Positions 1 to 33,503 of a stretch of DNA of 33,503 nt are shown in pieces. Position 1 is the stretch's first letter, and each line of letters opens with the position of its first letter. Origin of the DNA: Candidatus Thorarchaeota archaeon (GTDB lineage: Archaea; Asgardarchaeota; Thorarchaeia; Thorarchaeales; Thorarchaeaceae). Location of the stretch: NCBI GenBank assembly GCA_019057475.1, contig DXJO01000002.1, forward strand, positions 1 to 33,503, in the 5' to 3' direction. The notes below the pieces were generated by a model that was not told the DNA's origin, did not search any database, and saw nothing but the letters and a program-made list of their open reading frames with translations. The position numbers and the translations under genes were made by a program.

Positions 1-133
1 CGCCTGTGGAGAGGACGTGAGACTTGTCGCAGATTCAGTAGGATCTGCAGAGCAGACCTCAATGAATCAGGAACCGAACATCAGTCAAGGACATTGATGT
101 CCAAGATAGTATAAGTTTCGGGCAACGGTTCAC
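1..133 (+). mobile_element. 3' part/right end of an IS200/IS605-family (TnpB omega-RNA-like) element, truncated by the window start
   Basis: GCCTGTGGAGAGG...TGAATCAGGAA resembles the conserved tnpB 3'-end/omega-RNA motif. It has an 8-bp hairpin at 29-48, a subterminal hairpin at ~76-102, and GAACCG(71-76)/CGGTTC(126-131) complementarity. It ends in TTCAC(129-133), a typical IS605-type right-end motif. 22 of the first 25 nt are identical to 33431-33455. Confidence 0.6.
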
Positions 134-12151: not shown

Positions 12152-13297
12152 TTATCGAACCCATTCCTGCAAAAGCCGAACGGCCCGATTCAATCTCAAT
12201 GAGTGGGCATGAGCAAGAATTTGCCTTTGGTCGTCAATCGCCTTCATTTGCAGTGAGAGTTCACCGGATTGAGCCATGGACACAAGTTTCAGGATTGCAT
12301 CGCGGTCTTCTTTTGGAGTATATGTCAGGATTTCCGCTAATTCTGAAACTCCGCATAATGCATCGTAAACGACTCGAACGAGAGACAGTACCTTAAGTAG
12401 TAACGTTTCGTTTCCATAGAGAGAGGGGTTAGTAATTAGCTCTACAAGCGAACACCTGGCCTCCTTTGAGCTCACCGCACGAAAAAGCTCGATGCTTCCG
12501 TCCAGCAGTTGTACCATGCCGGACTCTAAGTGATTAGCAAGGTTCTGTATCAGGCTCAGAGCGTGCTTTGCATTCTCATCGAGGGTTGATTCCACTTCTG
12601 CTCGTCTGACAGGCAATTGTGCACTCTTCTCATCGATGCTCATGTTCGTGCCTGCATGATATACAGTATGCCTGTCACCATCCACAGGTTCCACACAACC
12701 TGACAGAATAGAGAGAAGGTCGCAACCACAGCAGTTGCATATTGTCGCACCAACAAGAGCACGTTCAAGCTTGCCAAAGACACTCATTACTTGGTCGCGG
12801 TCCTTCACTCGTCTCATGTTGATACGGCCGTCCTGAAGAACGGTGATGTTCATCTCATCAACATCAGCTCGACCATATCCGAGGTCACGGCTACACTTGA
12901 CAAGATCAAACTGCGATTGCAGGCAGTTCATCAGGTCGCAAAGCGTTCGAGGGTCAAACACGGCAAATCGCATACTCTCACCGGGCTCAACGCCATTATG
13001 CAGGCTGAGCTCGGCCATCACTCTATCATTTGTGTCCTTGCAGGGTTGTGTGAACAAGACGCCGCCTTCAGGCAACTCCGGTGCAATTCCCATGCGAGGA
13101 GTGGAATCCCCTTTCAACATCGCCTCAAGCTCCGCTCTCAGGTTACCGTAATCGCGGAGCCCAAGAATCGGACAATCATCTAACTCAAGCTGTCCAACAA
13201 CCAAGGCTCTTGCAAAACCTGTGCAAGCGGCCCTGCCGCAAAGCCCACAGTTGATTTTCGGGGTGCGCATCCACGTCTTAACCCAGGTGTTACTCAT
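12152..13297 (-). CDS. Fe-S cluster-binding protein of unknown function
   Basis: N-terminal NCGLCG...C...CP motif of the RnfB/AcsC-type FeS domain, with further Cys motifs (QPC, KCS, CNCCGC). Confidence 0.8.
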   Translation of the reverse strand: MSNTWVKTWMRTPKINCGLCGRAACTGFARALVVGQLELDDCPILGLRDYGNLRAELEAMLKGDSTPRMGIAPELPEGGVLFTQPCKDTNDRVMAELSLHNGVEPGESMRFAVFDPRTLCDLMNCLQSQFDLVKCSRDLGYGRADVDEMNITVLQDGRINMRRVKDRDQVMSVFGKLERALVGATICNCCGCDLLSILSGCVEPVDGDRHTVYHAGTNMSIDEKSAQLPVRRAEVESTLDENAKHALSLIQNLANHLESGMVQLLDGSIELFRAVSSKEARCSLVELITNPSLYGNETLLLKVLSLVRVVYDALCGVSELAEILTYTPKEDRDAILKLVSMAQSGELSLQMKAIDDQRQILAHAHSLRLNRAVRLLQEWVR

Positions 13298-29669: not shown

Positions 29670-30911
29670 TCAGTTTAGCCTGCCACGCCTTCTGAGGAAC
29701 TCATCCATCTTCAGCAGGCCCCTTAAGAGCCGCTGGTAATCTGAATTAAGCCAGTAGTTCTCGTAAGTACACTCCTCAGACCCTCCGCCTGAAGGAATCA
29801 TCGGCAGGTCTGAGATGGCTTCTGACACATTAATTGGGGGCGGATAAGCGGCTGATGTCATCCTTGCGTCCTCTCGCTGACGACCTCTTGTGACGGAGGA
29901 AAATGAAGGAAGTGGCGATTCCAATTTCCTGCCAGTTCTGTTAGCGAGGACAACCAAGCGCCTACGTCTCTGAGGAACACCGTATTGTTCTGCATTCAAC
30001 TGAAAACAATGACAACTGTATCCAAATGATTCCAGAAACTCGATTGTCTTGCGTAGTACCTTGCCATTCTGCATGTGCCGCATTCCAGGAACATTCTCAA
30101 TTACGGCATAATCTGGCATGAACTCACTAACAATCTCCAGCATGGGAACAATCAAGCTGTTTCTCATGTCAGCGGGGTCTCGCTTTCCCGCCGTTGAGAA
30201 GCCTTGACACGGAGGGCCCCCTGTCACTATTCGAAGTGTTCGCCCTCCAAGCACACCCTCAATCGACTGCTTTAAAGATTCATACTGAACTTCGTCAGCG
30301 ATGTCAGCTTGAACAACAGAAGCATCTGAATGATTGTGTTTCAGAGTCTTGCACATGCTGGTGTTGATATCTGATGCCAGGACTACGCGGTGTCCAGCCT
30401 GCGAAAGGCCTTCTGATATGCCTCCGGCCCCGGCAAATAGATCAACAGCTAGACCTGCCTTAATCGTTTCTCCAATTGCTCTTGCCATTAACGGCGGCAC
30501 AGCGTTGCCAATCTGTTTCCGCATTGAGGCCGCACTGCCGAAGAATCTGTACTCGTCTGGAAACGATTGAAGTCGTGCCGCTTCTCGATGGCTTATCAAG
30601 CGGTCTTGATCAGGGTGAATGAATGTGCCATTTCCTGGGCGATTATAGTAGGTGTTGACTGTGTAGCTTGGATGGTCGCCTCTAAGACGCCCATAGTATG
30701 TAGTCCGTCCTCCAGATGCCCTGATTTGAGTAAGGCGCGAAGACTTTCGTACGGTTTCAAGGGGTATGTCCTTCCAGTTCCCTCCAGGAGGGACTGAGCG
30801 AACCATCTCCATGTCAAGGTCACTTAGAGAAGAACAGACATGGTTGTACAGGAGTCCAGATCCCTTCAAGCCTGATGCAAGCTCAACAGTCGATAACAAC
30901 ATCCAACTCAA
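29670..30911 (-). CDS. circularly permuted DNA (cytosine-5)-methyltransferase, Alw26I/Eco31I/Esp3I type
   Basis: TRD plus motifs IX (REAARLQSFP) and X (QIGNAVPP) come before I (DLFAGAGG), IV (GGPPCQGFS), VI (ENV) and VIII (QRRRR). Start codon uncertain. Confidence 0.92.
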   Translation of the reverse strand: MSWMLLSTVELASGLKGSGLLYNHVCSSLSDLDMEMVRSVPPGGNWKDIPLETVRKSSRLTQIRASGGRTTYYGRLRGDHPSYTVNTYYNRPGNGTFIHPDQDRLISHREAARLQSFPDEYRFFGSAASMRKQIGNAVPPLMARAIGETIKAGLAVDLFAGAGGISEGLSQAGHRVVLASDINTSMCKTLKHNHSDASVVQADIADEVQYESLKQSIEGVLGGRTLRIVTGGPPCQGFSTAGKRDPADMRNSLIVPMLEIVSEFMPDYAVIENVPGMRHMQNGKVLRKTIEFLESFGYSCHCFQLNAEQYGVPQRRRRLVVLANRTGRKLESPLPSFSSVTRGRQREDARMTSAAYPPPINVSEAISDLPMIPSGGGSEECTYENYWLNSDYQRLLRGLLKMDEFLRRRGRLN

Positions 30912-30974: not shown

Positions 30975-33209
30975 CTAGGCTATCTCGCTCATTGCAGTCA
31001 TTGTTTCACGAACTTCATCTTGGTTCGCACCCCTTGAGGTCATGACAAACCTCGCTTCATTCAGTCCCAAGCCGTACAAGAGAAACACACGCGCTTCAAC
31101 GCTGGAACTTGGAGAGCTTCCTTTCGATAACATATCCTGTACATCATTGACTATCTCGCCAACGAGATCAGTAATGCGTTGATTCTGAGAATGAGGATCT
31201 GTGATAGGCAGAGATGCCAACTCACGGTTGGAAACATGGTTGTTCGCGTTGCTCAGATCGAACCTCCAGTTAAGGAGATCCGAGTTAAGGATGCCAAGCA
31301 TGTAGGAGAGTAGCCACTCATCTTTCGAGGGGCCCACTGCAACATAATTGCATGAGTTTGCGAGTACGGTCTTAGGTGGGACCATGGCGAATTTGAGACG
31401 CCAGCGTTGTGCACGGTTTGAAACCTGTTGGCAGGCTATCCGCGAATCGAAGATGTGAGGACTTCTCGCAGAGGAACCCAGTGATTTGACAAAGGACGAC
31501 AGTCCAACGCTCTCAGACTCACGTTTGATTGGTCGCAGTGTGTATCGTGAGATGTCAGCTCCTCTGACAAGGCGACTACCCTTCTTGCCTAGTTTGATGT
31601 GTTCCTTGCTCAGCGTGAGGTCAAGCTCACCCCTCCGATTCTGAAGCCAAGGGAGTGAGCCGAGGGTCGGATTCTCGTGAAGCGTTTTCAGTATTCGCCA
31701 TCCTGTTTGATTCACTCTTGGTATCACCATGGATTCACCCATGACCTGTTCGATATCGTCGACTCTGAGTTTCAACCGGGTCTTTGTCTGAGCATCGTGA
31801 ACGTCGCTCAATCCGAAGCTTGCACTCAGACTCTCTGTCGAACTGCACGTTTCAACAGTCATCACACAAACGGATTGAGTAACACCGGGAAACAATCTTG
31901 CACGCTCGGTGTACTCATCTATGCGCAATAAGCAGTGCTTGCTCAATAGATGCCGCCTGAGTAGCCCCGCAGAAATATCTCCAAGGAGTGTGGAGGGAAC
32001 GACGACCCCAAGGCGGCCTCCATGACGGGCCAATCGTAAGGCTTGCTCAATGAATAGACGATAAGTGTTGATCGTGTACCGATTGCCTAGAGCGTACTCT
32101 CCTGAGTTCCTGAAGTACGCTATGTCTTCTCGAAGGTCAACCTTGTAATCCTCAAAGTCCTGCAAGTGAATAGTCCGATCGCCTGACTGAAGGCGCTCTC
32201 TCAAAAACTCGGCCAAATTCGGTTTCAGCCTCTCATAAGGCGGATTCATCACAATGAAATCAAAGCCCCTGGCGCCCCGAGCGAGTATGTCGGGAAACTC
32301 TGATTGCCATTCAAAGGGACACCTAGAGGCGGAATCTTCAAAGAAGCTCGTGTGGTTTGCAGACCCATCCCACCCATTCATCATCACCAATGAGTTGCCT
32401 TGCTTCAATGTTCGCCCCAAGGTGGAGGAGGTCGCAGATGCAGGGTCTTGACCTAGAAGGAGTGCAATGGAAATGCCTGCAATCTCAAGCGCGGCTTTAT
32501 CAATATCTACTCCGAATAGATTCTCGCGCAGTACTCCCGGCAGATTAATAGAAGTCAGACCAACCTTCTTGGCAGCCGCCTCAATTGTTGATCTTCTCCT
32601 TCTGAACGCTTCAATTGCTGATAAGAGAAATGCTCCAGGCCCACATGCGGGGTCGAGTACTTTCAATGAGAGGAATTGCTCAAACTCCTCCAAATCGCCT
32701 TTCTGAATACCTGCAAGTCTTCGATCCAACTCGGCTCCAATAGTCATCTCGCAAATGTAATCCGACACGGTAAGAGGTGTGTAGATTGCACCTAAAGCTC
32801 TCCGAGATGGATGCCCTCTGCGGCCTGCGGGCAGCGAGAAACAGCCGTAGGAGTGTATCTGAGCAAGAAGCTCAGCTAAGTTTCGAGGAGTGGCGGACTT
32901 GACTTTGGCGGCGTAAGCATCGCCGTTCCAAATCTCAAGAGCTGACCGGGCCGTTTCAATTGCATCTCTCGGCGATACTCCATATTTCTCAGCTTCATGC
33001 GAAAGATGAGAGAGTAATGGGACAGGCTTTCTGATGATCTCGTCAGCTTGAGAATCAGTGCACTGTGCAACAGTCCAAGTCAAGGCGGCGATTCTGGCGG
33101 CCTCTGCGGGGGTTCGCATGTCCACTAAGGGTTTGGATGCAATGCCAATTATCTTGGAGTGCAGTGATTTGACAATGCTCCAGGCCAAACCACCGTTTCC
33201 TCTCAACAA
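30975..33209 (-). CDS. N6-adenine DNA methyltransferase (gamma class), Alw26I/Eco31I/Esp3I-like
   Basis: GAIYTP, VLDPACGPGAFL, GVDID, NPPYERLKP, LFPGVTQ, RGELDLT, QQVSN, LANSCNY and NNHVSNREL. Start codon uncertain. Confidence 0.9.
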   Translation of the reverse strand: MLRGNGGLAWSIVKSLHSKIIGIASKPLVDMRTPAEAARIAALTWTVAQCTDSQADEIIRKPVPLLSHLSHEAEKYGVSPRDAIETARSALEIWNGDAYAAKVKSATPRNLAELLAQIHSYGCFSLPAGRRGHPSRRALGAIYTPLTVSDYICEMTIGAELDRRLAGIQKGDLEEFEQFLSLKVLDPACGPGAFLLSAIEAFRRRRSTIEAAAKKVGLTSINLPGVLRENLFGVDIDKAALEIAGISIALLLGQDPASATSSTLGRTLKQGNSLVMMNGWDGSANHTSFFEDSASRCPFEWQSEFPDILARGARGFDFIVMNPPYERLKPNLAEFLRERLQSGDRTIHLQDFEDYKVDLREDIAYFRNSGEYALGNRYTINTYRLFIEQALRLARHGGRLGVVVPSTLLGDISAGLLRRHLLSKHCLLRIDEYTERARLFPGVTQSVCVMTVETCSSTESLSASFGLSDVHDAQTKTRLKLRVDDIEQVMGESMVIPRVNQTGWRILKTLHENPTLGSLPWLQNRRGELDLTLSKEHIKLGKKGSRLVRGADISRYTLRPIKRESESVGLSSFVKSLGSSARSPHIFDSRIACQQVSNRAQRWRLKFAMVPPKTVLANSCNYVAVGPSKDEWLLSYMLGILNSDLLNWRFDLSNANNHVSNRELASLPITDPHSQNQRITDLVGEIVNDVQDMLSKGSSPSSSVEARVFLLYGLGLNEARFVMTSRGANQDEVRETMTAMSEIA

Positions 33210-33339
33210 TGTAATCCCTATCAGGGCAATTCATGTCAAGATGAAAAGGGTATGTAACAGCTGCAGAAAACCTGTATAAAATTGGACATCTCTTAGATGA
33301 ATAGCGAATCGAAGACCCTTTTTTGTAGGTGTTAATATA

Positions 33340-33503
33340 CTCCAGAGAGGGACCTGTACATGTAGTGTCAGTCCAAGACGAGAACCAAGTCCAAGGATGA
33401 CTCTACCGTCAGTTGGCCGGGGACGTAAAATGCCCGTGGAGAGGACGTAAGACTTTCAGTTAATTCTTCAGAATTAACAAAAAGCAACCTCGATGAAGCA
33501 GGA
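33340..33503 (+). mobile_element. 5' part of a non-coding IS200/IS605-type element (putative left end + omega-RNA-like scaffold, no tnpB upstream), truncated by the window end
   Basis: Hairpin GGAC...GTCC(33350-74) followed by AAGA. TACCGTCAG...TGCCCGTGGAGAGG...TGAAGCAGGA resembles tnpB 3'-end/omega-RNA. Colinear with window positions 1-72. Left boundary approximate. Confidence 0.6.

Follow-up and report, generated by a model that had tools for sequence, protein, structure and literature searches.

A gene-less IS607-type element with a TnpB omega-RNA scaffold, internal promoter and conserved leader hairpin as a candidate stand-alone guide-RNA gene in Thorarchaeota

The window analysed here is the whole of a 33,503-nucleotide contig (C52) of a Candidatus Thorarchaeota archaeon whose assembled genome (G000) is 3.34 Mb in size and 96% complete. 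Close to its right-hand end lies a gene for an Eco57I-type adenine methyltransferase (30975–33209, minus strand), and a mobile element on the plus strand is inserted 41 bp upstream of the start codon of this gene at 33209. The methyltransferase is a host neighbour gene outside the element and occurs without it in genomes G001 and G005. A C5 cytosine methyltransferase gene is next, at 29670–30911. The insertion occupies the expected promoter region of the adenine methyltransferase and may alter the expression of that gene. The element extends from 33251, where its first letters are TATG, to virtual position 33559, where its last are CAACGG, a length of 309 bp of which 56 nt lie beyond the contig end. 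These last 56 nt are supplied by contig C8, which matches 33409–33503 (plus strand) exactly over 95 nt. On C8 the element ends in ...GGGCAACGG at virtual position 33559, followed by TTGGGTAGACC..., the flank that would serve as guide; the orthologous filled site in genome G003 has this right flank too. The original prediction had placed the start at 33332 and the length at about 230 nt; similarity between copies begins at about 33248, 80 nt to the left of that start, and both values had to be revised, with C8 continuing past the contig end. Its reading of the locus as a gene-less mobile element in an Asgard genome, composed of a left end, a scaffold and a right end, was borne out, as was its argument that the 195-nt gap to the methyltransferase start codon is too short for tnpB or tnpA. 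No tnpB or tnpA coding remnant was found in 33210–33405 (best E 0.08), and a decayed tnpB upstream of the scaffold was accordingly not seen. A census of left ends and a comparison of left with right ends delimited the IS607-type left end at 33251–33331 (plus strand). It holds a TGGACA motif at 33283–33288, inverted imperfectly with respect to motifs near the right end, and by analogy with known IS607 ends (PMC6188088) it is a putative TnpA-binding region.

The element belongs to a dispersed family. BLAST with the last 353 nt of the window returned 36 core matches in G000, a number far above chance, and the further copies anticipated by the original prediction are thereby present. Two types were distinguished. 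The window copy is A-type, and G000 has at least six A-type copies, five of them at contig breaks, with up to 16 in congeners. A-type copies from five Thorarchaeota genera share a constant layout (left end, A+T block, GTAG start, hairpin, scaffold, right end), measure about 280–326 bp and never have tnpB inside. The approximately 20 B-type copies in G000 are internal deletions of a tnpB-only element, mostly 268–280 bp long with a few of 323–346 bp. End motifs, AGGG target, TATA box and scaffold are common to both types, but B-type copies retain the first tnpB codons at their start, whereas A-type copies lack any coding remnant there and carry a conserved hairpin instead. A/B recombinants are present in relatives. 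At the opposite end of the window, positions 1–128 (plus strand) contain a B-type scaffold and right end, so both contig breaks fall in this element family. The window also holds an empty target site at 12659–13253, which in genome G004 is filled by an A-type copy (locus L102).

Insertion sites were compared across genomes. The element is preceded by the host sequence AGGG (33247–33250, plus strand), identified from a census of left junctions, and the GG crossover core (33249–33250, plus strand) was located from the empty orthologue in G001 and the filled site in G003. G003 carries the element at the orthologous site; in G001 the site is empty and reads AAAAG-GG-TTGGGT, with a single GG, and in G005 (locus L052) it is also empty, with GA replacing GG. 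Empty sites were rebuilt from 39 copies in relatives and then searched in G000, and at least nine other insertion sites have a contiguous empty allele in G000, most of them with a single GG and neither gain nor loss of bases. The left junctions read AGGG in 47 of 67 cases and GGGG in 10 of 67, with information limited to positions −5 to −1, and the right flanks show a C/T preference at +1 only (97 flanks). Both junctions of the element carry GG without further target duplication. The element lacks terminal inverted repeats but has short repeated motifs and, subterminally, an imperfect inverted repeat. The comparison of filled with empty sites that the original prediction had called for, with its single GG when empty, AGGG motif and absence of duplication, demonstrates at the level of aligned genomes both the mobility of the element and its target motif. 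GG-core exchange without duplication defines IS607 (PMC6188088), and in CboIStron, which has a GG core, a 4-nt NGGG motif serves as both TnpA target and TnpB TAM (10.1101/2023.11.20.567912). Based upon the GG-core junctions and this precedent of target equalling TAM, AGGG is the predicted TnpB TAM as well as the predicted TnpA target. That the element is an IS607 mini-element carrying an omega-RNA scaffold is almost certain.

In some empty alleles AGGG has changed (GA for GG, ATGG or AGGC), a change that could be due to drift or to evasion of cleavage. A general target rule based on an end-like motif in the right flank was dropped, the 97 flanks showing only the +1 preference. In the present insertion, as seen in G003 (L051:2347–2385), part of the flank could pair with the right end of the element itself, such that the guide could fold onto the scaffold; this looks incidental, since it is not seen as a rule across the 97 flanks. 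A search of G000 for a second target of the guide of the window copy gave one seed match with two mismatches, judged to be chance, and six pattern matches in viral contigs were each a chance occurrence in unrelated sequence.

The omega-RNA scaffold occupies 33404–33503 (plus strand) in the window, and the scaffold motifs lie where they had been placed. It is a former tnpB 3′ tail whose frame is closed by TAA: 33408–33503 matches the 3′ tail of a TnpB gene with 59% identity over 32 codons (E 8e-10), TAA within, in line with the predicted tnpB 3′-end similarity. Its elements include GAGG at 33441–33444 with CCTC at 33488–33491 and a variable hairpin at 33453–33484 (plus strand). The window copy lacks one 6-nt ACCGTC unit found in most copies, and its first helix is shorter. 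Among 28 copies, scaffold pairing was kept in 97.7% of cells, with two-sided changes at 10 of 35 pairs; none of 500 shuffles reached so high and slid controls gave 28–52%, such tests being inflated when the copies are related. Folding of the central variable hairpin is preserved through several unrelated versions that differ in sequence and length. A 174-nt stretch of the window folds no better than shuffles (z −0.85), and no Rfam covariance model matched the region at E ≤ 1. The structural support for the RNA is comparative, resting on pairing conserved between copies. Conservation of the right end can be explained in part by TnpA binding alone.

An archaeal TATA box, TTAATATA, was located at 33332–33339 (plus strand), as had been predicted, and a 45-nt hairpin follows at 33362–33406 (plus strand), its first base 30 nt after the first base of the box. 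The position −30 to −23 is the usual one for an archaeal TATA box. An A+T block (86–98%) is found at constant spacing in 49 copies, and tnpB-only relatives have the same TATA box at similar spacing before their ATG. The TTAAT motif had been offered as a TAM, a TATA box or both: it behaves as a TATA box, but it lies about 80 nt inside the element and therefore cannot be the TAM, AGGG being the motif at the junctions. A sigma-70 scan was set aside, the host being an archaeon. The leader hairpin begins at the inferred +1 G and bears a near-invariant cap, GAC-GAGA(A/G)CCAA-GUC, at 33377–33391. An arm-swap permutation gave −12.5 kcal/mol for cognate arms against −9.6 ± 0.8 for swapped arms (p = 1e-4; upstream control −4.6), the related copies not being fully independent, and the long stem appeared in 10 of 12 single folds. 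MAFFT alignments of divergent leader hairpins did not yield the structure in RNAalifold, probably owing to shifts in arm register. Part of the hairpin proposed originally, at 33350–33378, precedes the inferred start, and divergent copies do not conserve it. The leader hairpin was absent from all nine tnpB elements checked, and the A-type hairpin is not tnpB-derived, 33210–33405 being without coding similarity. A model of it found real matches in 21 of 86 genomes of the family, covering five Thorarchaeota genera, and no credible match outside the family among 151 genomes of the phylum. Pairing of the loop CCAA with scaffold GUUGG was considered and dropped, the supposed partner varying without compensation.

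Metatranscriptome contigs were aligned to the complete orthologue of the element in G003 (L051). In two runs from two studies (X5 and X9), cover was limited to L051 2163–2366, from +1 to the right end, with word depths of approximately 650–2500 (X5) and 80–285 (X9) and zero cover on the left end and the methyltransferase gene. The G of GTAG lies at L051 2163, equivalent to window 33362, and TTAATATA is accordingly at −30 to −23. The RNA contigs are strandless, leave exact ends and the guide invisible and sum copies of related organisms, and some of the RNA records carry 22–26 unaligned letters at the 5′ limit; read with that resolution, they hint at a discrete transcript from the internal promoter. 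The deeply covered form in X5 and X9 has the 6-nt unit that is missing from the window copy. Low-depth contigs in runs X3 and X14 cover the left end together with genomic flanks and were taken as DNA carry-over or read-through. Cover was also missing from the flank of this locus, an absence to which no weight was given.

Proteins that could act on the element were sought elsewhere in the genome, and intact TnpB genes are present, as the original prediction had supposed. Contig C18 of G000 has a 1336-bp tnpB-only element encoding a 404-aa TnpB that is intact, with RuvC residues D190/E274/D356 and a zinc finger; further open tnpB copies are on C31 and C7. The closest relatives of this TnpB, at 91–92%, are in Ca. 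Thorarchaeota MAGs. The last 156 nt of the C18 element are 77% identical to the window element, and insofar as an intact TnpB with so similar a scaffold is encoded elsewhere in G000, use of the element RNA in trans is likely on the basis of sequence. This TnpB clade was found in 15 of 21 genomes with the leader hairpin, compared with 9 of 65 without it (kin are not independent). The other six of the 21, in which no close TnpB was detected, are all incomplete MAGs. The search for tnpA covered the same 96% complete genome, in which repeats lie at contig breaks. Two serine recombinases of G000, on C53 and C19, exceed the NCBIfam cut-off for IS607 TnpA. The C53 gene, the best in G000, stands at the head of a sister-family element with a related left end, and its reading frame is broken by two frameshifts; the G005 orthologue is unbroken and likewise inserted at AGGG. 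The C19 gene is 35% identical to that on C53 and is without an N-terminal HTH match. Genome G027 contains a complete element, with serine tnpA and tnpB, whose scaffold and right end are those of the window element; its tnpA on G027:C338 scores 191 bits (cut-off 110) and overlaps the tnpB, and this TnpB clade is thus tied to IS607.

The interpretation that we consider probable is that the window element is a non-autonomous IS607-family mini-transposon working as a stand-alone omega-RNA gene. The element inserts at AGGG by exchange over the GG core and leaves host bases otherwise unchanged, a step that the comparison of sites demonstrates. A serine TnpA provided in trans would bind the end motifs and move the element as a double-stranded DNA circle. 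The internal TATA box, as conservation and the RNA contigs support, would drive a transcript of approximately 200 nt plus flank, consisting of 5′ hairpin, scaffold and a guide taken from the host flank. Such an RNA would need no 5′ processing, because it is not a tnpB mRNA, and the leader hairpin probably protects or positions its 5′ end. The 404-aa TnpB of the tnpB-only sister elements may load this RNA and cut the empty allele at AGGG plus flank, and repair from the filled chromosome would then restore or spread the element. Cutting of the empty allele with repair restoring the element was shown for IS605 (PMC10055086), and it was proposed and tested for IS607 IStrons. Through such cutting and repair, it is proposed, each copy would secure its persistence by means of a nuclease that it does not itself encode. 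A more tentative and on balance doubtful extension is that A-type elements are long-established genes built for guide RNA rather than remnants of a deletion, with an invariant hairpin loop to which TnpB or an RNA-binding protein of the host attaches, giving priority loading or regulated activity.

An unlikely alternative is a passive IS607 MITE, in which the scaffold survives through its overlap with the right end and the RNA is a by-product of an inherited tnpB promoter. The B-type copies fit this description as simple tnpB deletions that kept promoter and right end, and the whole transcript folds no better than shuffles (z −0.75). It does not account for the A-type leader hairpin, which does not descend from tnpB, has its first base at the inferred +1, shows covariation and is maintained in five genera, nor for the internal variable hairpin, kept in unrelated sequences despite the closed coding frame. 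It is also unlikely, and somewhat more so, that the RNA, bound to TnpB or through its loop to a host protein, serves chiefly as a decoy or a regulator, titrating TnpB or keeping it inhibited, and not as a cutting guide. The high depth in RNA libraries would suit such a role, as would the invariant 9-nt loop, for which the scaffold offers no covarying partner, and one study reports that sequence lying 5′ of the omega-RNA inhibits TnpB cleavage in cis (PMC10278001); against it, every insertion has the exact scaffold–guide junction (...CAACGG/flank) and AGGG, as for a working guide, and inhibition is without direct sign. The IS200/IS605-type PATE with a TTAAT TAM assumed in the original prediction draws on a TnpB that scores alike on IS200 and IS607 models and whose closest solved natural relative is ISDra2-type, but it is refuted by the empty sites, the GG/GG junctions with AGGG upstream and TTAAT internal, and by a clade coupled to serine tnpA with no Y1 (HUH) TnpA found in G000 (no PF01797 match in the 96% complete genome; control positive in 6 of 14 genomes). 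An assembly artefact, with a collapsed repeat at the contig end hiding tnpB, would explain why five of six A-type copies in G000 are at contig breaks and is likewise refuted, by more than 30 complete contig-internal copies of approximately 300–326 bp in other genomes, the G003 site included.

The element type is already known. Stand-alone omega-RNA loci of OMEGA systems, mobilised and working in trans, have been published (PMC10691335), and PATE-like omega-RNA elements are known in Geobacillus stearothermophilus (PMC10055086). These are also protein-less, keep ends and scaffold and need transposase and nuclease in trans; in contrast to them, the window element has IS607 ends and target (GG core, serine recombinase) rather than Y1/hairpin ends, an archaeal TATA promoter, a leader hairpin not derived from the nuclease gene and an Asgard host. 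IS607, IS1535 and ISC1926 (PMC6188088) and CboIStron (10.1101/2023.11.20.567912) have, as here, GG at junctions and target without true duplication, and the IS607 family and CboIStron share with it the imperfect subterminal inverted repeat with its short repeated motifs, a G-rich 4-nt target and a scaffold ending in CGG. Unlike them, the window element has no tnpA, tnpB or intron, uses AGGG rather than TGGG, and its RNA has its own start, whereas theirs is cut from tnpB mRNA. The lineage-specific addition is the conserved leader hairpin. The literature search found no description of a Thorarchaeota IS607 form with a covarying leader hairpin of non-coding origin and matching RNA cover, and none of such elements in Asgard archaea.

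The role of stand-alone omega-RNAs has been called unknown (PMC10691335). The basic element type is unsurprising. The leader hairpin points to the evolution of independent features in some stand-alone omega-RNAs, a matter relevant to the purpose of these RNAs. If the A-type is indeed a purpose-built guide gene with a protein-binding loop, elements without protein genes would draw on the TnpB supply of the related elements that encode it; this would add a parasite-of-a-parasite layer to RNA-guided targeting in Asgard archaea, and the RNAs would be a natural model for TnpB guides that are stable and driven by a promoter. Eukaryotes have their closest relatives in the Asgard archaea, and IS607 TnpB is reportedly the source of eukaryotic Fanzor2. 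One genome supplies a complete testable set: a nuclease, the predicted TAM AGGG, a natural guide whose scaffold is delimited at both its 5′ and 3′ ends, and its empty target.

Other IS607-type elements were noted in the same genome. An 8.6-kb cargo element at C53:671–9290 (L024, L014) has the frameshifted tnpA, an opposite-strand ORF of 1822 aa, a gene for a TnpB-like protein of 745 aa and a right end. No Pfam match was found in the C-terminal 449 aa of the 1822-aa ORF that were scanned, and the same 13 bp (GGTTCCGTAACTG) are present at both junctions, which is unusual for IS607. Eight TnpB/Cas12f-like zinc-finger matches were found in G000 (C42:187607, C53:9035, C39:69437, C9:22325, C18:47630, C54:173640, C42:35620 and C54:74875), seven of them in open frames of 570–770 aa, much larger than typical TnpB, and several are without recognisable ends. 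A second gene-less IS607-type family, approximately 190 bp in length, occurs at C42:221591–221781 and 11 more sites in G000, and its members combine a related left end and a TATA box with a short scaffold that ends in ATGAACGG; in G001 one copy of it lies about 90 bp away in the left flank of an A-type copy (L108). Its right end is also found after large TnpB-like genes, and members of this second family are probably stand-alone guides for a larger TnpB clade.
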